Assembly: GCA_051894195.1 (NCBI GenBank)
Contig: JBJFIB010000135.1
Span: 1-42,135, forward strand
DNA length: 42,135 nucleotides
Direction of reading: 5' to 3'
Source of the DNA: Acutalibacteraceae bacterium
GTDB lineage: Bacteria > Bacillota > Clostridia > Oscillospirales > Acutalibacteraceae
A model generated the notes under the pieces. It searched no databases and was not told the origin of the DNA. It was given only the letters and a program-made list of their open reading frames with translations. How positions within the stretch are numbered: position 1 is the stretch's first letter; the number at the start of each line of letters is the position of its first letter. A program made the position numbers and the translations under genes. Shown one piece after another: positions 1,182 through 42,135 of this stretch.

Positions 1182-1257
1182 TGGAGCTGGAAATGGGACT
1201 TGAACCCACGACTTCCTCATTACGAGTGAGGTACTCTACCAACTGAGTTATTCCAGC
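1182..1257 (-). tRNA. tRNA-Thr, anticodon CGT, with encoded CCA
   Basis: The reverse complement is GCTGGAATAACTCAGTTGGTAGAGTACCTCACTCGTAATGAGGAAGTCGTGGGTTCAAGTCCCATTTCCAGCTCCA. It folds as a 76-nt cloverleaf: acceptor GCTGGAA/TTCCAGC, anticodon stem CCTCA/TGAGG with loop CTCGTAA, and T-arm GTGGG-TTCAAGT-CCCAT. Confidence 0.92.
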
Positions 1258-8060: not shown

Positions 8061-8090
8061 GAGGAGTATCAGTTTTGGTACTCCTTTTTT
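8061..8090 (+). terminator. Rho-independent terminator after yajC
   Basis: Stem GGAGTA/TACTCC with a 10-nt loop, followed by TTTTTT. Confidence 0.75.
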
Positions 8091-8133
8091 GTTAGTTAGG
8101 AGTGAGGAGTTAGGAGTTGTGCTGACGGTCAGC
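8091..8133 (+). repeat. Heptad-repeat intergenic element, GGA class, GTNAGGA variant
   Basis: GTTAGGA GTGAGGA GTTAGGA GTTGTGC, followed by the near-palindrome TGCTGACGGTCAGC. Confidence 0.8.
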
Positions 8134-8724: not shown

Positions 8725-8871
8725 ATGAAAGAAACAAAGCACATCAAAACTCTTAACAATGCTAATCTCAAAGAGTCAGCAGTAAAGGGCGGTTGCGGTG
8801 AATGTCAGGCTTCCTGTCAGTCAGCTTGCAAGACTTCCTGCACAGTTGCTAACCAGAAGTGCGAGAAGTAA
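8725..8871 (+). CDS. scfA: Six-cysteine peptide SCIFF (RiPP precursor); absent from the ORF track
   Basis: My translation is MKETKHIKTLNNANLKESAVKGGCGECQASCQSACKTSCTVANQKCEK. This carries the canonical SCIFF C-terminal pattern GGCGECQ.SCQSACKTSCTV.NQ.C. AAGGGTGA lies upstream and the maturase gene downstream. Confidence 0.93.
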   Translation: MKETKHIKTLNNANLKESAVKGGCGECQASCQSACKTSCTVANQKCEK

Positions 8872-8930: not shown

Positions 8931-8979
8931 AATTTTTTCGTAATTCAGACTTTATACTGTATTTCAGCGTATTAACTGA

Positions 8980-9007
8980 CGCATTATGCATTACGAATTA
9001 CGCATTT
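8980..9007 (-). repeat. Heptad-repeat element, TAATKCG class, inverted orientation
   Basis: The forward strand reads CGCATTA TGCATTA CGAATTA CGCATTT. This is the reverse complement of four TAATGCG/TAATTCG-type units. Confidence 0.75.
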
Positions 9008-9030: not shown

Positions 9031-10443
9031 ATGATACACAAATACAAACTCGGCGGATATAATATATGCCTTGATGTACACAGCGGTGCGGTTCATATAC
9101 TTGACGATATTGCCTATGATATTCTTGACTACTGCGACGAAAATATGAGCGAACAGCCACCTGAAAAAATGTACACTGAGCTTTCATCAAAATATGATAA
9201 AGACGATTTGACAGAAACATATCAGGCACTGTACTCACTTTATCAGAACGGTCAGCTCTTTTCACCAGATGATTATGAACAGTTTGCCGATATGATGACA
9301 AAAGCACCGATAAAATCAATGTGCATAAACATCTCTCACGACTGTAACCTCAGATGTGAATACTGCTTTGCCGCAAAGGGCGATTTCGGACAGGGACGCT
9401 GTCTTATGTCGTTTGAAACAGCAAAGAAAGCTATTGACTTTATTATTGCAAATTCAGGTACAAGACATAATCTTGAAGTTGACTTTTTCGGCGGCGAACC
9501 GCTGATGAATTTCGATGTTGTCAAAAAGACCGTTGAATACGCAAGAAGTATCGAAAAACAGCACAACAAAAACTTCCGCTTTACAATTACAACAAACGGA
9601 CTTTTGCTTGATGATGATAAAATCGACTACATCAACAAAGAAATGTCAAATGTTGTTTTGTCGCTTGACGGACGAAAAGAAGTTAATGACAGACTGCGTG
9701 TTACACCTAACGGCAAGGGTTCATACGATACTATTGTACCGAAATATCAGAAACTCGTTGCGTCAAGAGGCGACAAGGATTATTATGTCAGAGGTACATT
9801 CACAAAGCATAATCTTGATTTTACAAATGATGTTATGCAAATGAAAAATCTCGGATTTGAACAGCTTTCAATCGAGCCTGTTGTGTCAGACCCTCAGCTT
9901 GATTATTCAATCAAAAATGAGGATTTGCCGGCAGTATTCAATGAATATGAACACCTTGCTGATACAATAATTCAGTCAAGACGCAAGGGCGACTATTTCA
10001 ATTTCTTCCACTTTATGATTGACCTCAACCAAGGTCCCTGTGCAATCAAGCGTCTGCGTGGATGTGGCTGCGGAAACGAATATGTTGCTGTTACACCACA
10101 GGGCGACATCTATCCGTGTCATCAGTTTGTCGGACACGAGGAGTACAAAATGGGCAACCTCAACGACGGCACATTCAACAATGATATGAAACTGATGTTC
10201 GCCAAGGCAAATGTATATTCAAAGGAAAACTGCAAGAATTGTTGGGCAAAATTCTATTGCAGCGGCGGCTGTAACGCAAACAATTTCCAGTATGAAGGCG
10301 ATATTCTTAAATCCCACAAGACTTCCTGCGAGCTTGAAAAGAAACGCCTTGAATGTGCAATTATGATTAAAGCGGCTCTTGCGGATATGCCGTCGGAAAA
10401 CTCACAGTGCGACGGGGACGACTGTTTCGGCGTTTGCAGATAA
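9031..10443 (+). CDS. scfB: SCIFF radical-SAM maturase with a SPASM domain
   Basis: Radical-SAM motif CNLRCEYC, a Cys-rich C-terminal SPASM region (CGCGNEY..., CKNCWAKFYCSGGC), and adjacency to scfA. Confidence 0.93.
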   Translation: MIHKYKLGGYNICLDVHSGAVHILDDIAYDILDYCDENMSEQPPEKMYTELSSKYDKDDLTETYQALYSLYQNGQLFSPDDYEQFADMMTKAPIKSMCINISHDCNLRCEYCFAAKGDFGQGRCLMSFETAKKAIDFIIANSGTRHNLEVDFFGGEPLMNFDVVKKTVEYARSIEKQHNKNFRFTITTNGLLLDDDKIDYINKEMSNVVLSLDGRKEVNDRLRVTPNGKGSYDTIVPKYQKLVASRGDKDYYVRGTFTKHNLDFTNDVMQMKNLGFEQLSIEPVVSDPQLDYSIKNEDLPAVFNEYEHLADTIIQSRRKGDYFNFFHFMIDLNQGPCAIKRLRGCGCGNEYVAVTPQGDIYPCHQFVGHEEYKMGNLNDGTFNNDMKLMFAKANVYSKENCKNCWAKFYCSGGCNANNFQYEGDILKSHKTSCELEKKRLECAIMIKAALADMPSENSQCDGDDCFGVCR

Positions 10444-13346: not shown

Positions 13347-14576
13347 TTGGATAAAAATATATTCTGGATATGGCTGCAATGCTGTCTTGGCGTTGACAAT
13401 CCCCGTATTCACAGAATTTTTGAAGTTTTTGATGACGCTTATCATATATATAACGCCGACGAAAACGAACTCAGAATCAGCGGAGTTTTTTTGCATAAGG
13501 AACTTTTAAAGCTGAATGACAAAAATCTTGATACTGCAAAGAAAATATATAATAAATGTTTTTTGCACGGATATAATATATTTTCTTTACAGGATGAAAA
13601 TTATCCCGACAAGCTCAGAAAAACACCGACACCGCCTGTTGTTATATATGTAAAGGGCAGAATTCCCGATGGGAATCGTCTTTTTGCGGCTATTGTCGGC
13701 ACAAGACATTCAACAATAACAGGCAGGAAAACAGCCTTTTCGCTTGCCTATGACCTTGCAAAAAGCGGTGCGGTTATCGTCAGCGGCGGTGCTATGGGTA
13801 TTGATGCACAGGCTCATCTCGGTGCAATTCAGGCAGGCGGAAAAACCGTGTGTGTGCTTGGCTGTGGAATAAATTACGATTATTTGCCGTCAATGGAAAA
13901 TATCCGCAGCGAAATTTCAAAACACGGTGCATTGATTTCGGAATATCCGCCGGATTATCCGCCGACTAAATTTACATTTCCGAAGCGTAACAGAATTATT
14001 TCGGGAATTTCCGACTGTACGGTTGTCGTTGAGGCGGGAAAAACAAGCGGTGCATTGATTACCGCAAAAGAGGCTGCAAAACAAAACAGAACAATTTTTG
14101 CCGTTCCGGGAAGTATCGAAAGTCAGAGTGCAGTCGGTTCAAATCTTCTTATACAGGAGGGTGCAAAAATACTTCTCAGTGCCGAAAACATTATCGACTG
14201 GTATAATTCAGAAAATCAAAAAAATAATGACGGAAAAATTACAAAAACTCAGATAAACCCCGACTCAATAGCAAACATACGAACCAAATCAGAAAAAAAT
14301 AAAATATTGCCAACAGATGAAAAAACATTGGAAACACACTCTTTATCGCATAAACAGACCGTTAAAGCCGAAAAAAAAGAAAATAAAATTCCCGACGGAC
14401 TGTTGACAGAAAACGCTGTTGCGGTGTATCATACAATTTCAGATACCCCTATTCATGTAAACGACATCAAACTTGCAACAGGCTTAAAGATAAACGATGT
14501 AATTTCAGCACTCTCAGAACTTGAACTGAACGACCTTATTCTTGTTCACTCAGGCAGAAGATACACGAAAAAATAG
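13347..14576 (+). CDS. dprA: DNA-processing protein DprA (Smf)
   Basis: TTG start after GGGGAGAG. The Rossmann core reads IVGTRHST..., SGGAMGIDAQAH, RNRIISG. There is a long Lys/Asn-rich linker and a C-terminal winged-helix-like tail. Confidence 0.9.
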   Translation: MDKNIFWIWLQCCLGVDNPRIHRIFEVFDDAYHIYNADENELRISGVFLHKELLKLNDKNLDTAKKIYNKCFLHGYNIFSLQDENYPDKLRKTPTPPVVIYVKGRIPDGNRLFAAIVGTRHSTITGRKTAFSLAYDLAKSGAVIVSGGAMGIDAQAHLGAIQAGGKTVCVLGCGINYDYLPSMENIRSEISKHGALISEYPPDYPPTKFTFPKRNRIISGISDCTVVVEAGKTSGALITAKEAAKQNRTIFAVPGSIESQSAVGSNLLIQEGAKILLSAENIIDWYNSENQKNNDGKITKTQINPDSIANIRTKSEKNKILPTDEKTLETHSLSHKQTVKAEKKENKIPDGLLTENAVAVYHTISDTPIHVNDIKLATGLKINDVISALSELELNDLILVHSGRRYTKK

Positions 14577-14620
14577 AGTGGAGTGTGGAGAGTGGAGTGT
14601 GGAGTTGTACGAACCGTCAG
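14576..14620 (+). repeat. Heptad-repeat intergenic element, GGA class
   Basis: GAGTGGA GTGTGGA GAGTGGA GTGTGGA GTTGTAC GAACCGTCAG. The first G is the last base of the dprA TAG stop. Confidence 0.9.
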
Positions 14621-16800: not shown

Positions 16801-16829
16801 TTGTAAAAACCGCTAATATATGGTAAAAT
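16801..16829 (+). promoter_or_regulatory. Putative promoter for trmFO
   Basis: TTGTAA, 17 nt, TGgTAAAAT. It would place the heptad element and the conserved hairpin inside a ~190-nt leader. Confidence 0.4.
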
Positions 16830-16830
16830 A

Positions 16831-16866
16831 TAATGCGTAATTCGTAATGCGTAATGCGTAATTATT
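16831..16866 (+). repeat. Heptad-repeat intergenic element, TAATKCG class
   Basis: TAATGCG TAATTCG TAATGCG TAATGCG TAATTAT. The tail is loosely similar to the one after 27598 (…GAC..AAGTTTG.TG.G.TGA). Confidence 0.9.
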
Positions 16867-16981
16867 ATTGCGGACATTAAGTTTGTGCGTTGAATTTTGG
16901 TTTGATGCAAAATTCAGTTGTTGCGTGTAAAAATACAATACACTGATTTTGCGGAAAATGACTTAACGGTAAAAATAACTT

Positions 16982-17012
16982 TGAACGCAATTCGGGTGCG
17001 GCAGCTTGCCGC
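16982..17012 (+). repeat. Conserved 31-nt hairpin module, copy 1
   Basis: TGAACGCAATTCGGGTGCGGCAGCTTGCCGC is identical to 36375..36405. The core hairpin is GCGGCA-GCT-TGCCGC. Confidence 0.9.
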
Positions 17013-17028
17013 TGGAGGTGGAGTTGTT

Positions 17029-18339
17029 GTGTATATAAATGTGCTTGGTGCAGGTCTTGCAGGTTGCGAGGCGGCATATCAGATTGCAAAGCGTGGAATA
17101 AATGTAAAACTGTATGAAATGAAGCCGTCAAAGAAAACAGCGGCTCATAAAAGTAATAATTTTTGTGAACTTATATGTTCAAATTCGCTGAAAGCGGCGA
17201 GAATTGAAAGTGCCGCCGGACTTCTCAAAGAGGAAATGCGTAGAATAGGCTCACTGCTTATGGAATGTGCCGATAAATGTGCCGTTCCGGCAGGTGGTGC
17301 ATTGGCGGTTGACAGGGACGAATTTTCGTCAATGGTAACAAATGCAATACGCAATAATCCGCTGATTGAAGTTATCGAAAGCGAGATTACGGAAATTCCG
17401 CACGATGCAATTACAGTTGTTGCGACAGGACCGCTTACAAGCGACAAACTTGCCGACAGAATTATTGAAATGTGCGGAGGTTCACTGCACTTTTTTGATG
17501 CTGCTGCACCTATCGTTACCGCTGAAAGCATTGATATGAATTGTGCATTTACCGCCTCACGCTATGACAAAGGCGGAGATGATGCATACATCAACTGCCC
17601 TATGAACAAAGAGGAATACGAAAATTTCCACAGGGAGCTTGTTTCGGCTGAGCGTGCAGAACTGCACGATGTTGATGTGCAAAATCCGAAAGTTTATGAG
17701 GGTTGTATGCCTGTTGAAATTCTTGCACAGCGTGGACTTGACACCTTGCGTTTCGGACCTATGAAACCTGTCGGACTGCGTGACCCACGAACAAACCACA
17801 GACCGTGGGCAGTTTTACAGCTCAGAACCGAAAATTCCGACAAAACAATGTACAATCTTGTAGGCTTTCAGACAAACCTCAAATTCCCAGAACAAAAGCG
17901 TGTTTTCGGAATGATACCGGCACTGAAAAATGCCGAATATGTCCGTTTCGGAGTAATGCACAGAAATACATTCCTCGATTCGCCACGGGTTCTTAATTCC
18001 GATTATTCGATGAAGTCAAATCCGAAAATATTTTTTGCCGGTCAGATGACAGGTGTTGAGGGATATATGGAGTCGGCGTCGTCGGGAATGATGGCAGGCA
18101 TAAATGCCGTAAAACGACTGAAAAATGAAGAAACGGTAACGCTGTCAGATATGAATATGATTGGTGCATTGTCAAGATATATAAGCAATCCTACTGTAAC
18201 CGATTTTCAGCCTATGGGTGCAAATATGGGAATACTTCCACCGCTTTCAGAACATATAAGAGATAAAAGAGAGAGAGCGGCGGCATATTCACACAGGGCA
18301 TTGGCTGAACTTGAAAATATAAAAACTTTGCTTAAATGA
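17029..18339 (+). CDS. trmFO: Methylenetetrahydrofolate--tRNA-(uracil54-C5)-methyltransferase TrmFO (Gid)
   Basis: GTG 17029 follows GGAGGTGGAG. The N-terminus VYINVLGAGLAGCEAAYQIAKRG is a FAD-binding GxGxxG motif, and the ~436-aa length is typical. The ORF-track start at 16918 reads through repeat elements. Confidence 0.92.
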   Translation: MYINVLGAGLAGCEAAYQIAKRGINVKLYEMKPSKKTAAHKSNNFCELICSNSLKAARIESAAGLLKEEMRRIGSLLMECADKCAVPAGGALAVDRDEFSSMVTNAIRNNPLIEVIESEITEIPHDAITVVATGPLTSDKLADRIIEMCGGSLHFFDAAAPIVTAESIDMNCAFTASRYDKGGDDAYINCPMNKEEYENFHRELVSAERAELHDVDVQNPKVYEGCMPVEILAQRGLDTLRFGPMKPVGLRDPRTNHRPWAVLQLRTENSDKTMYNLVGFQTNLKFPEQKRVFGMIPALKNAEYVRFGVMHRNTFLDSPRVLNSDYSMKSNPKIFFAGQMTGVEGYMESASSGMMAGINAVKRLKNEETVTLSDMNMIGALSRYISNPTVTDFQPMGANMGILPPLSEHIRDKRERAAAYSHRALAELENIKTLLK

Positions 18340-20052: not shown

Positions 20053-21062
20053 AACATTCAAATGTAGCACTTTTTGTACCTCATAACGGCTGTCCTCATC
20101 AGTGCAGTTTCTGCAATCAGCGAACAATCACAGGAAAAAACGAACAGCCGACAGCACAAGATGTAAAAAATGCAATAGAAACAGCCGAGAACAGTCTTGG
20201 TGAAAATACAAAAAATGCCGAAATAGCTTTTTTTGGCGGCAGCTTTACGGCAATAGACAGAAATTATATGATTGAACTTCTTGAAGCGGCTGCACCGTCA
20301 GTGCATAGCGGAAGATTTTACGGCATAAGAATTTCAACCCGACCTGACGCAATCGACAGCGAAATCCTCGATATTCTTCAAAAATACGGCGTTACCGCTG
20401 TTGAACTCGGGGCTCAGAGTATGAGTGACGAGGTGCTTTATGCAAACCACAGAGGACATACTTCGGCTGATATTGTAAATGCGTCAACGATGATAAAAGA
20501 GCGTGGTATGTCGCTCGGCTTGCAGATGATGACGGGACTTTATAAAAGTGATGACGAAAAAGACACGGAAACAGCGGAAAAAATTGCCGCCTTAAAGCCT
20601 GATACAGTACGCATTTATCCTACAATAGTCCTTAAAGGAACGGAACTTTACGACCTCTATGTCAGCGGAAAATATCAGCCGCAAACGCTTGACGAGGGTG
20701 TAAGATTGTGTTCAAAGCTGCTTAAATACTTTGAGGACAGAAACATAAATGTTATCCGTCTTGGACTTCACGACAGCGACAGTCTGCGTGAAAATATGGC
20801 GGCAGGTGCATATCACCCTGCGTTCCGTGAACTCTGCGAAAGCGAGATTATGTACAACAACGCTCTTGAAGAACTCGAAAAAATGAACATAAAATTCGGC
20901 GTTGTCGAATTTTTCATAAATCCGAAATCGGTTTCACGCTTTATCGGTCAGAAACGAAAAAATCTTGACCGCCTTTCAAAGCTGGGTATAACGGCGGTTG
21001 TGCGTCAGGACTCACGGCTCTCAAAATATCAGACCGTATGCCGATATGTACCGCAAATTTGA
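20049..21062 (+). CDS. Radical SAM protein (ELP3/coproporphyrinogen-oxidase-like superfamily), function unknown
   Basis: N-terminal CPHQCSFC is a CxxxCxxC motif, followed by GGSFT. The TTG start overlaps the rnc stop. Confidence 0.8.
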   Translation: MKHSNVALFVPHNGCPHQCSFCNQRTITGKNEQPTAQDVKNAIETAENSLGENTKNAEIAFFGGSFTAIDRNYMIELLEAAAPSVHSGRFYGIRISTRPDAIDSEILDILQKYGVTAVELGAQSMSDEVLYANHRGHTSADIVNASTMIKERGMSLGLQMMTGLYKSDDEKDTETAEKIAALKPDTVRIYPTIVLKGTELYDLYVSGKYQPQTLDEGVRLCSKLLKYFEDRNINVIRLGLHDSDSLRENMAAGAYHPAFRELCESEIMYNNALEELEKMNIKFGVVEFFINPKSVSRFIGQKRKNLDRLSKLGITAVVRQDSRLSKYQTVCRYVPQI

Positions 21063-21108
21063 GAGTGGAGTGTGGAGAGTGGAGTGTGGAGTTGTGCAAA
21101 AGGTCAGC
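21061..21108 (+). repeat. Heptad-repeat intergenic element, GGA class
   Basis: GAGTGGA GTGTGGA GAGTGGA GTGTGGA GTTGTGC AAAAGGTCAGC. It starts immediately after the TGA at 21060-21062. Its 33-nt core is identical to 14576..14608. Confidence 0.9.
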
Positions 21109-25656: not shown

Positions 25657-25775
25657 AAAATAAAGGGGAAAATTATTGACGGATTTTATCCGTTTGATTA
25701 TGAGGAGTTGGCGGAGTTATTTTTGCACTTGAAAATAAAGAATAATGTTCAGACCTTAAAGGGAGGATGAAGTTT

Positions 25776-26412: not shown

Positions 26413-26934
26413 ATGAATGATACGAATAATAACAAGCGTCTGTTCATTTATGATGTAGATAAAAAGTATGAGGACATATTTTTAAAATTAAGTGATGATT
26501 TTCTGTTTCCGGCTTCACCGTCGGTAAAGGGTTGTATAGGCTGTTTTGGCTGCTGGATAAAAACACCCGGACAATGTGTGTTGAAAGACAGATGTAATAT
26601 TATTCAGAACTATATTTTAAAAAGCAGTGAGGTTGTTATTGTCAGTCCTGTATTATACGGCGGATATTCACCGGATATTAAATCCGTGCTTGACCGTTCT
26701 ATCGGATACATATTGCCGTATTTTCGGATTGTTGACGGCGAAATGCACCATCAGCTGAGGTATAAACATTCCTTTAAACTCAGCGTGTATTTTTACGGAA
26801 AATGCGGTGATGATGAAAAAAATATTGCTAAGCGTCTTGTAAAAGCAAATGCAATCAATCTTGGTGCAGAAAGTTATGAAGTTAAATTTTTTGATTCTGT
26901 GGATTCATTAGGAAAGGTAATCGGTGAAAAATGA
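26413..26934 (+). CDS. Flavodoxin-fold protein with a Cys cluster (Isf / FMN-reductase-like), lacking the N-terminal phosphate-binding loop
   Basis: CIGCFGCWIKTPGQCVLKD followed by VVIVSPVLYGGYSPDIKSVLDRS resembles iron-sulfur flavoproteins. No GSPR-type loop is present. Confidence 0.65.
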   Translation: MNDTNNNKRLFIYDVDKKYEDIFLKLSDDFLFPASPSVKGCIGCFGCWIKTPGQCVLKDRCNIIQNYILKSSEVVIVSPVLYGGYSPDIKSVLDRSIGYILPYFRIVDGEMHHQLRYKHSFKLSVYFYGKCGDDEKNIAKRLVKANAINLGAESYEVKFFDSVDSLGKVIGEK

Positions 26935-27566
26935 AAATTCTTATGCTGTGCGGAAGTCCACGACCACAAAAAAGTACATCACACTATTTACTCAATGTAC
27001 TGAAAGAAAGATTGTGTAATGAAAATGAAATTCTGATGTGCAATATTGCGGGAAAAAATCCGGATATTGAACGGACTGTTCTGGAAAATGCGGAAGATGT
27101 TGATGTAATTGTTGCTGCATTTCCGCTGTATGTTGACAGTATTCCGGGAAGTTTTCTGAGAGTGCTTGAAAATATTGAAAAACAGATTAAGGAGCATAAA
27201 GTCGATTGCAAGTTGTATGTTATTGTCAATAACGGATTTTATGATGCAAAACAAAACAGTATTGCTATTGATATTATGTGGAACTGGTGTGAAAAATGCG
27301 GTATGACAAAGGGCAGAGCAATAGCTGTTGGTGCAGGAGAAATGGTACAGGGCATACCGCTCGGAGCAGGACCGATGAAAAATCTTGGAAACGCTATAAA
27401 TCAGTTTACTGATGATATACAACACAGAAATACCGGCGAAACAATTTTTGTTGAACCGAATTTCCCGAGATTTTTATATAAAACAGCGGCACATATGGGT
27501 TGGCACAGAAATGCAAAAAAGAACGGTCTTAAAATTTCAGATATTAAGAAAACAGATATAAAATAA
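26931..27566 (+). CDS. Flavodoxin-like NAD(P)H-dependent oxidoreductase family protein
   Basis: MKILMLCGSPRPQKSTSHYLL is an FMN phosphate-loop type sequence. There is a 4-nt ATGA overlap with the upstream gene. Confidence 0.65.
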   Translation: MKILMLCGSPRPQKSTSHYLLNVLKERLCNENEILMCNIAGKNPDIERTVLENAEDVDVIVAAFPLYVDSIPGSFLRVLENIEKQIKEHKVDCKLYVIVNNGFYDAKQNSIAIDIMWNWCEKCGMTKGRAIAVGAGEMVQGIPLGAGPMKNLGNAINQFTDDIQHRNTGETIFVEPNFPRFLYKTAAHMGWHRNAKKNGLKISDIKKTDIK

Positions 27567-27600
27567 TTCGTAATGCGTAATTCGTAATGCGTAATTATTG
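27564..27600 (+). repeat. Heptad-repeat intergenic element, TAATKCG class
   Basis: TAATTCG TAATGCG TAATTCG TAATGCG TAATTAT. The first TAA is the stop codon of the 26931..27566 gene. Confidence 0.9.
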
Positions 27601-27961: not shown

Positions 27962-27966
27962 TAAAT

Positions 27967-27994
27967 TTTCAACTTTCCATTTTCCATTTTCAAT
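27967..27994 (+). repeat. Heptad-repeat intergenic element, TTTCMAY class
   Basis: TTTCAAC TTTCCAT TTTCCAT TTTCAAT (then TTACTCG), beginning 5 nt after the yhbY stop. Confidence 0.8.
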
Positions 27995-28016
27995 TTACTC
28001 GACTGGGGTGTTTTGT

Positions 28017-32578: not shown

Positions 32579-32610
32579 GCGTTTATTGAGTAACAGATGT
32601 CGTGGCTTTG

Positions 32611-32647
32611 CTACAACTCCACTCTCCACTCTCCACACTCCACACTG
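32611..32647 (-). repeat. Heptad-repeat element, GGA class, inverted orientation
   Basis: The forward strand reads ACAAC TCCACTC TCCACTC TCCACAC TCCACAC. This is the reverse complement of GTGTGGA GTGTGGA GAGTGGA GAGTGGA GTTGT. Confidence 0.9.
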
Positions 32648-36306: not shown

Positions 36307-36374
36307 TATTTTTGACTGTATAATTTTTAAGCAGTCTGATATGCGGAAATTATCTTGCTGTTATATAATAAGTC

Positions 36375-36419
36375 TGAACGCAATTCGGGTGCGGCAGCTT
36401 GCCGCCGAATTACGCATTA
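36375..36419 (+). repeat. Conserved 31-nt hairpin module, copy 2, fused to two inverted TAATKCG heptads
   Basis: 36375..36405 is identical to 16982..17012. Here the flank CGAATT extends the helix by pairing with AATTCG, and is followed by CGAATTA CGCATTA (36406..36419). Confidence 0.9.
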
Positions 36420-36440
36420 GTTATGTTGGGAGATGTGTTT

Positions 36441-39642: not shown

Positions 39643-40770
39643 TATTTCCGAAAAATAACGGCATTTATGCTTTCAATTTTTACGGTGTTTCTTTGTGCTT
39701 TTTCGTCTGGAAATAAGACAACCGCTGTTTCAACCTCAGCGTCAGCGGCAATACTCTATTGTGCGGACAGCGGTGAAATTCTCTACGAAAAAAATCCGCA
39801 CGAAAAACGAGCAATAGCAAGCATAACAAAAATTATGACAGCAATTATTGCACTGGAATATGCCGCAGTCAACAACAAAGAAGTGAAATTTACATCTGAA
39901 ATGTCTGCAATAGGTTCGAGTATGTATCTCAAAGAGGGAGAAATACTCACACTTACCGAGCTTACAAAGGGAATGATGATGGTGTCGGGAAATGACGCCG
40001 CAAATGCTGTTGCAATTTCGGTTGCGGGCAGTACAGAAAAATTTGCGGAACTTATGAACCAAAAGGCACAGCAAATCGGAATGAAAGACACACACTTTGT
40101 CACGCCGTCGGGACTTGACGACGAAAATCACTATTCGACGGCGTATGATATGGCACTTTTGTGTTCGTATGCGATGGATAACGAGCAGTTCAGAAATATC
40201 GTTTCTCAAAAAAGCATAAAGGTTTCATACATTTATCCCGAGAACAAAACTCAGATATGCACAAATCACAACAGACTTCTGTCAATTTATGATGACTGCG
40301 TAGGAATTAAAACAGGTTTTACCGAAAAAGCAGGTAGAACGCTGACCTCAGCCGCCGAGCGTGACGGAATAAGGCTTATTGCCGTGACACTGAATGACGG
40401 AAACGACTGGAATGACCATTCGGCATTGTATGACTACGGCTTTTCGCTTGTCGAGCGTGTTCAGCTTTCAACAAAATATAAAAGCATTGATGTTGCACTT
40501 GTCGGTGCTGAACAGAACAGCGTTACTGTTGTGCCTTATTCACAGGCAGAGGCAACCGTTATGAAAAACGATATAAGCAAAATAGAAGAAAAAATCTATC
40601 TTCCACGATTTGTTTATGCACCTGTAAAAAAGGGCAGTACAGTCGGAAAAATTGTTTATACCTTAAACGGAAAAGTGATTTCCGAAACAAAACTTATTGC
40701 ATCGTCTGATGTACAGGCACAGACAGCGGAAAAACACTGGTACGATTTTTTGAAACTAAGATTATTTTAA
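39631..40770 (+). CDS. D-alanyl-D-alanine carboxypeptidase (S11, DacB/DacF-like)
   Basis: SITK is the SxxK motif, SGND the SxN motif and KTGFT the KTG motif. There is an N-terminal signal or anchor sequence. The start is uncertain because GTG 39631 lies inside the terminator 3' arm; TTG 39640 or ATG 39667 are possible. Confidence 0.88.
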   Translation: MIFLYFRKITAFMLSIFTVFLCAFSSGNKTTAVSTSASAAILYCADSGEILYEKNPHEKRAIASITKIMTAIIALEYAAVNNKEVKFTSEMSAIGSSMYLKEGEILTLTELTKGMMMVSGNDAANAVAISVAGSTEKFAELMNQKAQQIGMKDTHFVTPSGLDDENHYSTAYDMALLCSYAMDNEQFRNIVSQKSIKVSYIYPENKTQICTNHNRLLSIYDDCVGIKTGFTEKAGRTLTSAAERDGIRLIAVTLNDGNDWNDHSALYDYGFSLVERVQLSTKYKSIDVALVGAEQNSVTVVPYSQAEATVMKNDISKIEEKIYLPRFVYAPVKKGSTVGKIVYTLNGKVISETKLIASSDVQAQTAEKHWYDFLKLRLF

Positions 40771-40790
40771 TTATGCATTATGAATTATAA
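40769..40790 (-). repeat. Degenerate, inverted TAATKCG-class heptads
   Basis: The forward strand reads TGCATTA TGAATTA directly after the dacB-like stop. There are only two decayed units. Confidence 0.35.
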
Positions 40791-41605: not shown

Positions 41606-41612
41606 TAATTAA

Positions 41613-42135
41613 ATGAAAGTACTGATTTATACAGGATTTTTCAGGCGGCTGTTTTTGAAAAAGCGTCTGAAATCAATGAAATTTTTTTGGAAAAAAGACG
41701 AAAAACACTGGCAAAGGCATATTGACGACAGCAACAAAGACGAACTGAAAAAAGTCAGAAAATTCTGTCGCAGAAAATTTCTCAGATACGATTTTGTCGA
41801 TGACAGTATGGACAGGAGTACAAACTACCGGAATTATTTTTTCAAAATGAGAAAGGGAATTTTCGGCAGTGATATATATGTTTGTGCATACTGCGGCAAG
41901 TTTCTCACAAAAAAGCGTGTATGCGTTGACCACATCATACCTGTTTACAGGGCAAAAAATGACGATTTTTACAGAAAAGTTCTGTCGTTCCGACATATAA
42001 AAAATGTAAATGATATACGCAATCTTGCACCAAGCTGCAATAAATGCAACAGCAAAAAAAGTGCAAACTGCGGTTTTTGGGTAATTCGGGGATGCTTTGG
42101 CAGGTCGGCAGGGCGTGTTGTATTTAAGGAAATTG
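41613..42135 (+). CDS. HNH endonuclease, 3'-partial (open to the window end); absent from the ORF track
   Basis: My translation of the frame from ATG 41613 is ...IYVCAYCGKFLTKKRVCVDHIIPVYRAKND...NLAPSCNKCNSKKS.... This carries CxxC...DH..P...N...CxxCNxxK, an HNH/zinc-finger pattern. There is no stop before position 42135. Confidence 0.8.
   Translation, partial: MKVLIYTGFFRRLFLKKRLKSMKFFWKKDEKHWQRHIDDSNKDELKKVRKFCRRKFLRYDFVDDSMDRSTNYRNYFFKMRKGIFGSDIYVCAYCGKFLTKKRVCVDHIIPVYRAKNDDFYRKVLSFRHIKNVNDIRNLAPSCNKCNSKKSANCGFWVIRGCFGRSAGRVVFKEI

Follow-up and report, generated by a model that had tools for sequence, protein, structure and literature searches.

A 42,135-nt stretch of genomic DNA from an Acutalibacteraceae bacterium (GenBank assembly GCA_051894195.1, contig JBJFIB010000135.1, positions 1 to 42,135, hereafter called the window) carries short GGA-rich repeats between its genes. 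These elements belong to the dispersed tandem heptanucleotide arrays, a class with about four units (~28 nt) per array that occupies short spacers; their unit family and tail recur in the arms of two-armed inserts of related genomes, and PF05635 proteins are encoded by some of these inserts. The GGA-class arrays (unit GWGTGGA, variant GTKAGGA) are thus one unit family of a broader, fast-changing heptanucleotide class. We describe the window arrays as STRR-like (after the short tandemly repeated repetitive sequences of cyanobacteria) and regard them here as probably solo arms of elements akin to the intervening sequences (IVSs) of 23S rRNA. As an explanation of the whole, we lean with moderate confidence towards heptamer arrays that are orphan arms of IVS-like selfish inserts and are themselves near-neutral.

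The two clearest GGA-class copies lie on the forward strand. At 14576..14620 (+), in the dprA-topA spacer, four units alternating GAGTGGA and GTGTGGA are followed by the tail GTTGTACGAACCGTCAG (GTTGTAC...GTCAG); the first base of the array is the G of the TAG stop codon of dprA (identified by Pfam), and the array is identical in an ortholog, L063 (L-numbers label comparison loci and stretches), whose 92% identity with the window across 7.5 kb puts the latter in Acutalibacteraceae. At 21061..21108 (+), between a radical-SAM gene and smc, four units beginning at the TGA stop codon (21062) of the radical-SAM gene precede the tail GTTGTGCAAAAGGTCAG (GTTGTGC...GTCAG). A first-pass annotation had described both as heptad arrays with a GTTGT(A/G)C...GTCAG tail, which the sequence bears out, with 34 nt shared exactly between them (14575-14608 = 21062-21095). 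The inverted copy and the GTTAGGA/GTGAGGA variant that it listed are likewise present. The former, at 32611..32647 (-), is a four-unit array in reverse complement (87-94% complementary), with its tail (GTTGTAGCAAAGCCACGAC...) facing left and its head 7-8 nt upstream of the ribosome-binding site (RBS, AAGGGGG) of the next plus-strand gene. The latter, at 8091..8133 (+), was recovered by Tandem Repeats Finder (TRF) and by pattern match, reads GTTAGGA GTGAGGA GTTAGGA followed by GTTGTGCTGACGGTCAGC (GTTGTGC...GTCAG), and lies directly 3' of an intrinsic-terminator-like hairpin and T run (8062-8090). The two copies that had been called decayed fared differently. The one at 17011..17031 (+) is a genuine contracted array, with ~1.5 units and then GTTGT in the Shine-Dalgarno region directly before the GTG start of trmFO, and its orthologous site in L188 has 2.5 units (reading TGGAGAGTGGAGTGTGGAGTTGTTgtg). 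The other, at ~25700-25727, is unconvincing: two weak units, with no clear array, within an insertion of ~86 nt that duplicates the 3' end of ftsY. This insertion (25657-25745, relative to L182, L183 and L188) is an observation in its own right, in that it repeats the final ~24 nt of ftsY, provides FtsY with a new C-terminus, leaves the former 3' end non-coding, and contains a small hairpin besides the two weak GGAGTT units.

TRF calls a period of 7 (or 14) at all four GGA-class sites. Counted within the window, the motif is also commoner than chance predicts: the degenerate two-unit pattern GWGWGGAGWGWGGAG, searched with up to two mismatches, has 11 matches compared with 0.39 ± 0.67 in 100 shuffles, none of which (0/100) reaches 11. 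The occurrence of arrays at orthologous positions in independent assemblies (L063/L183, L188) rules out an assembly artefact. The initial view of a dispersed intergenic repeat family that is neither a CRISPR array, nor a coding insertion sequence (IS), nor a simple terminator also stands: the units are contiguous 7-mers rather than 23-50-nt repeats with unique spacers, the window arrays contain no hairpin, and the terminator at 8062-8090 precedes its array and is not formed by it. Rfam also has no match, searches at gathering and E-value thresholds returning nothing for arrays, tails or cores in the window and four two-armed loci. Readings of the tail as a promoter or UP element, a Spo0A box, an extracytoplasmic-function sigma factor promoter or an integron attC site were dropped, as inspection gave no consistent motif.

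Beyond the GGA-class copies, TRF and a self-match scan located six further tandem 7-mer arrays in the window with non-GGA units (TAATKCG and TTTTCCA). Four TAATKCG units followed by the tail TAATTATTATTGCGGAC occupy 16831..16872 (+), directly downstream of a promoter-like TTGTAA-17-TAAAAT at 16801-16829. Another four-unit TAATKCG array with its tail, at 27564..27599 (+), has as its first TAA (27566) the stop codon of an inserted gene, X2; the same array in L182 starts at the ham1 stop codon. On the opposite strand, a four-unit TAATKCG-type array at 8979..9006 (-) has its head ~10 nt upstream of the RBS of a SCIFF maturase gene, at a site where L063 carries (TGAATTA)n; a two-unit remnant (CGAATTA CGCATTA) at 36406..36425 (-) has a conserved hairpin core on one side and the next RBS on the other; and a three-unit TGCATTA/TGAATTA remnant at 40769..40789 (-) fills the 35-nt spacer from a stop codon to the next RBS. 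The sixth array, TTTTCCA/TTTTCAA in ~4 units at 27964..27996 (strand not assigned), is in the yhbY-nadD spacer. Some arrays are accompanied by a repeated hairpin core (GCGGAAAATGACTTAAC...ACTTTGAACGCAATTCGGGTGCGGCAGCTTGCCGC), present at 16944..17012 (+) and again, with 95% identity, at 36342-36412; related cores lie 3' of arrays in L017, L039 and L189.

Scanning with 21-nt windows showed that period 7 alone is enriched in the window, with eight arrays, and none at periods 4-6, 8, 10, 11 or 13. All window arrays fall in the ~10% of DNA that is non-coding and occupy 10 of 22 spacers, while spacers with clear TTGACA/TATAAT promoters have none. Several sense arrays start on the upstream stop codon (14576 TAG, 21062 TGA, 27566 TAA), and antisense arrays stop a few bases short of an RBS (8979, 32611, 36406, 40769). 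The window elements are therefore united by their 7-nt period, their length (about four units) and their position; their GGA content is incidental.

Several other features adjoin these arrays. The array at 8979..9006 is located between the terminator of a SCIFF ranthipeptide precursor gene (8725-8871; TIGR03973, E 2e-24) and the RBS of its radical-SAM/SPASM maturase (9031-10443; TIGR03974, E 1e-223). X2 (FMN_red/flavodoxin-like, resembling FMN reductases) and X1, which has no family, form an insertion at 26413-27566 between ham1 and yhbY, present in the window and L188 and absent from L182, L183, L189, L185, L187, L191 and L192; in both carriers the head of the TAATKCG array marks its exact end, the X2 stop being the first TAA of that array. 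Separately, an insert of ~140 nt resembling MITEs (miniature inverted-repeat transposable elements), with ends AAACTGTTTCT...AGAAACAGT, internal GC hairpins and CCCCAAA/CCCCACA units, is found in L063 (at the site orthologous to window ~8941) and in L183 (11640-11760), and is missing from the window at both sites; one of its ends (TTGAGTAACGAATGTCGTGGCTTTGC) matches the array tail at window 32580-32612.

To place these arrays in a wider context, we used the 23-mer TGGAGWGTGGAGWGTGGAGTTGT, which occurs in at least 100 stretches and at no fewer than 107 sites in GTDB contigs, a set with one genome per species. Unless stated otherwise, the counts in this and the following paragraph refer to the matches listed. 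Nearly all carriers are rumen or gut metagenome-assembled genomes of Oscillospirales (Ruminococcus, Acutalibacteraceae, Oscillospiraceae, Faecousia, Limivicinus), with a few contigs labelled Bacteroidales, Kiritimatiellota or Saprospiraceae. Across 0.71 Mb of these stretches we counted 266 period-7 arrays, built from more than 50 different units, versus 1-11 at other non-multiple periods. Median array length was 30 nt, and 93 of 110 array sites lay outside crude open reading frame (ORF) calls. In viral contigs, the TAATKCG pattern was present in 23, and the GGA-class pattern was not found in those searched.

The same stretches and crude ORF calls show that the arrays are polar: the 5' head abuts a stop codon (sense copies) or an RBS (antisense copies), and the GTTGT tail faces the interior of the spacer. 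The median distance of GGA-class heads to a stop codon in the same direction was 18 nt (55 sites; lower quartile ≤2 nt), heads of antisense copies lay a median of 46 nt from the gene start (29 sites), and the tail side lay ~200 nt from the next gene. Neighbouring copies pair head-out (+ then -), with 30 such pairs spaced 30-330 nt apart and no tail-out pair closer than 483 nt. Of 103 sites, 49 had a partner period-7 array no more than 400 nt away on the tail side, compared with 9 of 102 on the head side; among the 49 tail-side partners 32 were inverted GGA-class arrays, 15 had another unit and two were direct. About half of the arrays in related genomes are accordingly one arm of a compact palindromic insert, whose layout is array>, GTTGT, (hairpin), variable core, (hairpin), ACAAC, <array, the hairpins being present in some inserts only. 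In L003 a GGA-class left arm is combined with a CGCATTA-type right arm, so unit families are interchangeable as arms. For one two-armed element (L095) a 29-bp stem is predicted (-72 kcal/mol, z = -10.5), while the solo arrays of the window fold no better than shuffles (z -0.1 to +0.8) and lack a terminal stem of this kind. Some two-armed copies (L014, L075, L077) end in T runs.

Short intergenic inverted doublets in operon spacers, with the possibility of long RNA hairpins, recall RNA-hairpin MITEs, of which Correia and ERIC are examples, as well as the doublets of repetitive extragenic palindromes (REPs), termed REPINs. In one alternative, a recombinase, transposase or invertase would act on the arrays as sites in the DNA, either as terminal inverted repeats (TIRs) of an active MITE- or REPIN-like family or as the boundaries of invertible segments. 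Such a role would account for head-out inverted pairs bounding short multi-copy segments (two two-armed families are multi-copy within genomes), for the exact insertion of X1-X2 at an array head, and for the flanks TA|AACCATAATTT...AAATTATGGTT|TA of one family, although this TA cannot be distinguished from a longer TIR and is only suggestive as a target-site duplication. Against it, target-site duplications are otherwise unclear, differing arms on one element are hard to reconcile with a sequence-specific enzyme, and PF05635 genes are the sole recurrent neighbours, with no recurrent transposase, REP-associated tyrosine transposase (RAYT) or invertase. Of the MITE features, TIR-like arms and multi-copy families were seen in related genomes and TA flanks in one family, and no transposase was found between or beside the arrays. 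REP/REPIN systems with a RAYT comprise inverted doublets, thought to be the replicating unit, and decaying singlets (Bertels and Rainey 2011, PMC3116915). The arms described here differ from these in being direct tandem 7-mers rather than an imperfect palindrome and in having no GTAG motif, and no Y1-transposase-like neighbour, RAYT or IS transposase was present among 274 array-adjacent ORFs. We give this alternative little credence.

Clustering of those 274 ORFs yielded a single recurrent non-housekeeping family, a 110-130-aa protein in five genomes that matches PF05635 (23S_rRNA_IVP, E 1e-27 to 1e-31) and TIGR02436 (four helix bundle protein); the structure of one homolog, 2RLD, is solved. 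All five genes (L050 5606-5974; L069 25-351; L071 5402-5791(-); L075 5590-5973; L087 7328-7837(-)) lie within 250 nt of an array, and those of L050, L071 and L075 are bracketed by convergent arrays. In L071 and L075 the arms around the gene belong to the same unit family as the window arrays; the order in L071 is the TAA stop of a fabZ-like gene, a GGA-class array of 4.5 units, the ORF, an inverted array of four units, and the RBS of an accC-like gene. The L069 gene is inside a family whose 170-nt ORF-less form occurs in L043, L049, L022 and L083. Host operons of the PF05635 cassettes are hsdS-hsdR, a resistance-nodulation-division adaptor-permease pair, helicase-methylase and fabZ-accC.

Plasmids provide a further sample of these genes. 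A tblastn search of PLSDB returned 30 plasmids with PF05635 homologs, Nostoc and other cyanobacteria being dominant, and 12 loci (L193-L204) were picked by protein similarity only. Their hosts (Monoglobus, Euhalothece, Bernardetia, Chondrinema, Treponema, Nostoc (two), Dolichospermum, Chlorohelix, Planktothrix, Pseudanabaena and Gloeocapsa) span six phyla, including Bacillota, Cyanobacteriota, Bacteroidota, Spirochaetota and Chloroflexota. Read by eye, heptamers flank the gene on both sides in 12 of 12 loci; with a strict cut-off of 17 of 21, period 7 is scored at 15 of 24 flanks, and the remaining periods from 4 to 12 at none of the 24. The unit differs between cassettes, and the two sides mostly carry inverted copies of the same unit, for example (GTCGGAR)x4...(YTCCGAC)x5, (CAATTCG)x4...(CGAATTG)x4 and TAATTCG...CGAATTA; the flanks are of a more complex make-up in L196 and L199, and the repeat in L203 has a longer period. 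One more heptamer-bracketed PF05635 gene was seen in a viral contig (L225, 646-1005(-)). The idea that each protein reads its own heptamer was abandoned, since proteins of ~60% identity are accompanied by unrelated units.

The S23p protein has a crystal structure, from Xanthomonas campestris. It was in 23S rRNA intervening sequences that PF05635 proteins were originally discovered. In Coxiella burnetii the 23S IVS is described as a selfish element of 428 nt whose inverted-repeat ends form a 28-bp stem that RNase III cuts, with two to three tandem GACAGAT heptamers at the 5' end in strain-variable number, and an S23p ORF (PMC4990558). The elements in L050, L071 and L075 and the 12 plasmid cassettes have the same layout, namely terminal repeats of ~28 bp (4 x 7), heptamers and a four-helix-bundle ORF; unlike the 23S IVSs, they are placed between protein-coding genes and not in rRNA. 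The window copies depart further from this layout in having one arm only and no ORF; of the cassette features, the window has the terminal heptamers, and neither the S23p gene nor the ~28-bp stem. PF05635 genes have also been reported between cas genes and in rRNA inserts of candidate phyla radiation bacteria, with no mention of heptamers.

By analogy with these systems, we infer that the two-armed inserts are selfish elements of one kind with the S23p-encoding 23S rRNA IVSs. In a transcript, their paired arms would form a stem of ~28 bp, and RNase III may cut this stem and release the insert from the host RNA, a step established experimentally for the 23S IVSs only. The window copies, as single arms with a short shared tail, would be half or decayed elements unable to form the stem, and would persist as near-neutral spacer DNA reshaped by slippage, the GGAG content having presumably no class-wide role. 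Removal by RNase III from rRNA or operon mRNA would, if true, let an insert sit in essential genes and operons.

A number of points weigh against reading the window arrays as remnants of IVS-like inserts. No two-armed element is present in the window, pairs having been seen in related genomes only, and neither a PF05635 gene nor a relic of one was detected in the window or in ~150 kb of its syntenic relatives; the link to IVS-like elements consequently rests on family resemblance to other genomes. In three of the 12 plasmid cassettes (L193, L199, L203) the strict threshold scores no array on either flank, and two faecal phage-like scaffolds have PF05635 homologs with dispersed repeats and no tandem heptamers. 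A stable hairpin directly follows GTTGT in only 24% of copies, compared with 11-13% of controls (p ~0.04), and was dropped as a general feature. No mechanism of mobility came to light between or beside the arrays, and neither a transposase nor a clear target-site duplication was seen there; a transposase between distant head-out pairs was considered and rejected, the ORFs there being ordinary (VTC/DUF4956, a metallo-beta-lactamase-fold protein, GroES). Finally, a period-7 excess, albeit weaker, is also seen in unrelated contigs, which fits a general slippage bias. These contigs (L101-L180, 0.70 Mb) came from a metagenome scan with NadD that gave matches of ≤48% identity only and so served as background: period 7 is their commonest long tandem period (19 arrays), with 0-3 arrays at periods 5, 6, 8, 10 and 11, ten at period 9 and six at period 12, in line with the general over-abundance of heptanucleotide simple-sequence repeats that has been reported.

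The comparison of orthologous spacers shows how quickly the arrays change. An exact look-up of YhbY gave one 1.2-kb contig, and orthologs were obtained instead through FtsY homologs, with FtsY identities of 98% (L182, L189), 97% (L183, L188), 92% (L190, L191), 88% (L185), 87% (L192) and 86% (L187). In the spacer between the radical-SAM gene and smc, the window has (GWGTGGA)x4, L188 (GTTAGGA)x4, L183 three GTTAGGA units, L182 a TAATKCA array and L190 a TTTTCAA array, and L185, L187, L189 and L192 have none; the arrays of L183 and L188 keep the tail of the window, and L188 also has the same RBS and the same 75-nt spacer length, with a different unit. TAATKCG units in the topA-trmFO spacer number four in the window, one in L188, three in L183, four in L182 and none in L190 (the gene context differs in L189). 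The yhbY-nadD spacer has four units in the window, two in L188, one in L183, two in L182 and none in L189, and was not covered in L190. At the site of the inverted copy at 32611..32647, L183 has (GTTAGGA)x4 and L189 has no array. Arrays are absent at the orthologous spacers of L185, L187 and L192, and L185, L186 and L187 have compact spacers of 14-30 nt with no arrays in 53 kb. Conversely, L189 carries a complete 100-nt element in its smc-ftsY spacer, which is empty elsewhere; the core of this element matches the hairpin cores at window 16944-17012 and 36342-36412.

The presence/absence comparison for which the first-pass annotation had called thus shows the arrays to be polymorphic among close relatives. 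They change by gain and loss of whole units (slippage) and by concerted replacement of units, and different unit families are interchangeable at a given site. Such rapid turnover at orthologous spacers is a poor fit to a conserved regulatory site.

These observations also bear on the possibility that the arrays are pure simple-sequence repeats (SSRs), generated in situ by 7-nt replication slippage and tolerated outside reading frames, with neither a mobile origin nor a function. Mrazek's slippage hypothesis for long SSRs is cited in both PMC4679880 and PMC4692102. The variation in unit number from 0-1 to 4 at one orthologous site, the concerted replacement of units between identical flanks, and the preference for period 7 among long periods in unrelated contigs would all be explained. 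Slippage does not readily account for identical arrays of 23-34 nt with the same GTTGT tail at many loci in many genera, for the strong head/tail polarity and head-out pairing, for lengths that cluster at ~4 units with no geometric decay (as likewise in PMC4692102), or for the specific association with PF05635 genes. We consider slippage as the full explanation rather unlikely.

The first-pass annotation had further speculated that the GGA/GGAG motifs titrate ribosomes or a CsrA-type protein, and this proposal is not supported. Non-GGA units occupy equivalent or the same orthologous spacers, and the equivalence of different unit sequences argues against a sequence-specific binder. Among the matches listed, about one-third of GGA-class copies are antisense to the flanking genes, which would put CUCC in the RNA. 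Between genomes whose FtsY is 97-98% identical, arrays appear, disappear and change in size and in sequence, and they are absent at 86-88%. No hairpin loops presenting GGA are predicted, the regions fold no better than shuffles, and no separate promoter-plus-terminator unit typical of sponge small RNAs was seen at the arrays. Compared with CsrB/RsmZ sponge RNAs, with which they share several GGA motifs in a short stretch, the arrays differ in having no promoter and terminator of their own, GGA outside hairpin loops, equivalent non-GGA units and common antisense copies. The Shine-Dalgarno sequence of trmFO is indeed the GGAG array at 17013-17030, and this use is incidental, an occasional co-option.

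A broader version of the idea would make the arrays functional RNA platforms, with repeated sites for CsrA, cold-shock proteins, S1 or the anti-Shine-Dalgarno sequence that tune how the flanking cistrons are translated or how stable they are. Cold-shock domains bind ~7 nt (a point discussed in PMC4679880), the arrays are inside likely polycistronic transcripts beside stops and RBSs, GGA-class arrays have four to five GGAG motifs and one such array serves as a Shine-Dalgarno sequence, and solo arrays are predicted to be unstructured and hence accessible. At the same time, unrelated units are interchangeable at one site, a third of the copies are antisense, arrays differ in presence between near-identical housekeeping operons and are missing in close outgroups, and no covariation or conservation was found beyond the periodicity. 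This reading, which covers the titration proposal as well as MacGregor's idea for TAACTGA repeats, appears to us improbable.

Heptanucleotide repeats of bacteria have been noted since 1990, and since 2007 they have been known as the most over-represented class of long SSRs; we know of no mechanism or function established for them. The cyanobacterial STRR heptanucleotides reported in 1990 by Mazel and colleagues (cited in PMC4692102) are said to comprise several unit families per genome (STRR1-3). The features that characterise heptanucleotide arrays are all found here (head-to-tail 7-mers, dispersed and intergenic, ~4 units, variable, polar and, in related genomes, with convergent pairs). The closest parallel is with the heptameric SSRs of Xanthomonas (GGGAATC/GGGANTN) and Nostoc (GGGGAYT), which vary at one or two positions (Rehm et al. 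2015, PMC4692102). According to the same work, those of Xanthomonas mostly have four units, are ~90% intergenic, lie 28 nt from the 5' ORF versus 160 nt from the downstream ORF and, for GGGAATC in Xanthomonas campestris, form 70-75 convergent pairs per genome, and the length and sequence of the Xanthomonas and Nostoc SSRs differ between close species. The Oscillospirales arrays reproduce all of these features, from unit layout, length and intergenic site to polarity, convergent pairs and variation; they differ in occurring in Bacillota, in their units, which contain no G-tracts and so have no G-quadruplex potential, in having several unit families per genome and in the shared GTTGT tail. TAACTGA repeats are known from Beggiatoaceae, Cyanobacteria and Bacteroidetes (MacGregor 2015, PMC4679880), where nearly all sets have one orientation upstream of starts, with one inverted pair only. 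STRR and TAACTGA repeats (2-6 units) share with the arrays described here the form of dispersed intergenic heptamers, often beside start codons; the Oscillospirales arrays involve other units and lineages, both orientations and many inverted pairs. S23p, IVSs and RNase III go unmentioned in either paper, and PMC4692102 found no link to mobile elements.

A wider generalisation, which we advance tentatively and hold to be somewhat short of probable, is that STRRs, the Xanthomonas GGGAATC and Beggiatoa TAACTGA repeats and the Oscillospirales families are all arms or orphan arms of one cross-phylum class of S23p/IVS cassettes, ORF-less miniatures included, with an RNase III stem of ~28 bp; the support for it is consistent and comes from a limited sample. 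The link between heptamer arrays and S23p/IVS elements was not found in the literature searched, which is no proof that it is unpublished. If true, it would connect the over-representation of heptamer SSRs with the origin of 23S IVSs and with the scattered PF05635 genes of restriction-modification, CRISPR and housekeeping operons, and it ties heptamer arrays to S23p/IVS-type cassettes and RNase III in a concrete and testable way. Annotators would also gain a simple rule from it, reading heptamer arrays that are paired as the sign of an insert and those that stand alone as a scar. Together with its relatives, the window adds a Firmicutes example, in which near-identical housekeeping operon spacers can be compared directly for unit number, unit replacement and presence or absence. 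For the window alone, the repeats are no evidence of a new regulatory RNA.

Three other features of the window were recorded in passing. At its edge, positions 1-813 hold 2.3 copies of a 355-bp tandem repeat at 94% identity, with one 102-aa ORF per copy (148-456 and 503-811) that has no Pfam match, and a tRNA gene lies nearby at 1185-1257(-). Upstream of an infC-rpmI-rplT-like operon, the stretch 10498-10635 matches the Rfam model of the ribosomal protein L20 leader below threshold (41 bits vs the gathering score of 58.7, E 7e-5). The last 530 nt (41606-42135) contain an ORF fragment with CxxC...HxxP...NxxxxCxxCN motifs that, from a reading of the sequence only, resembles an HNH endonuclease.

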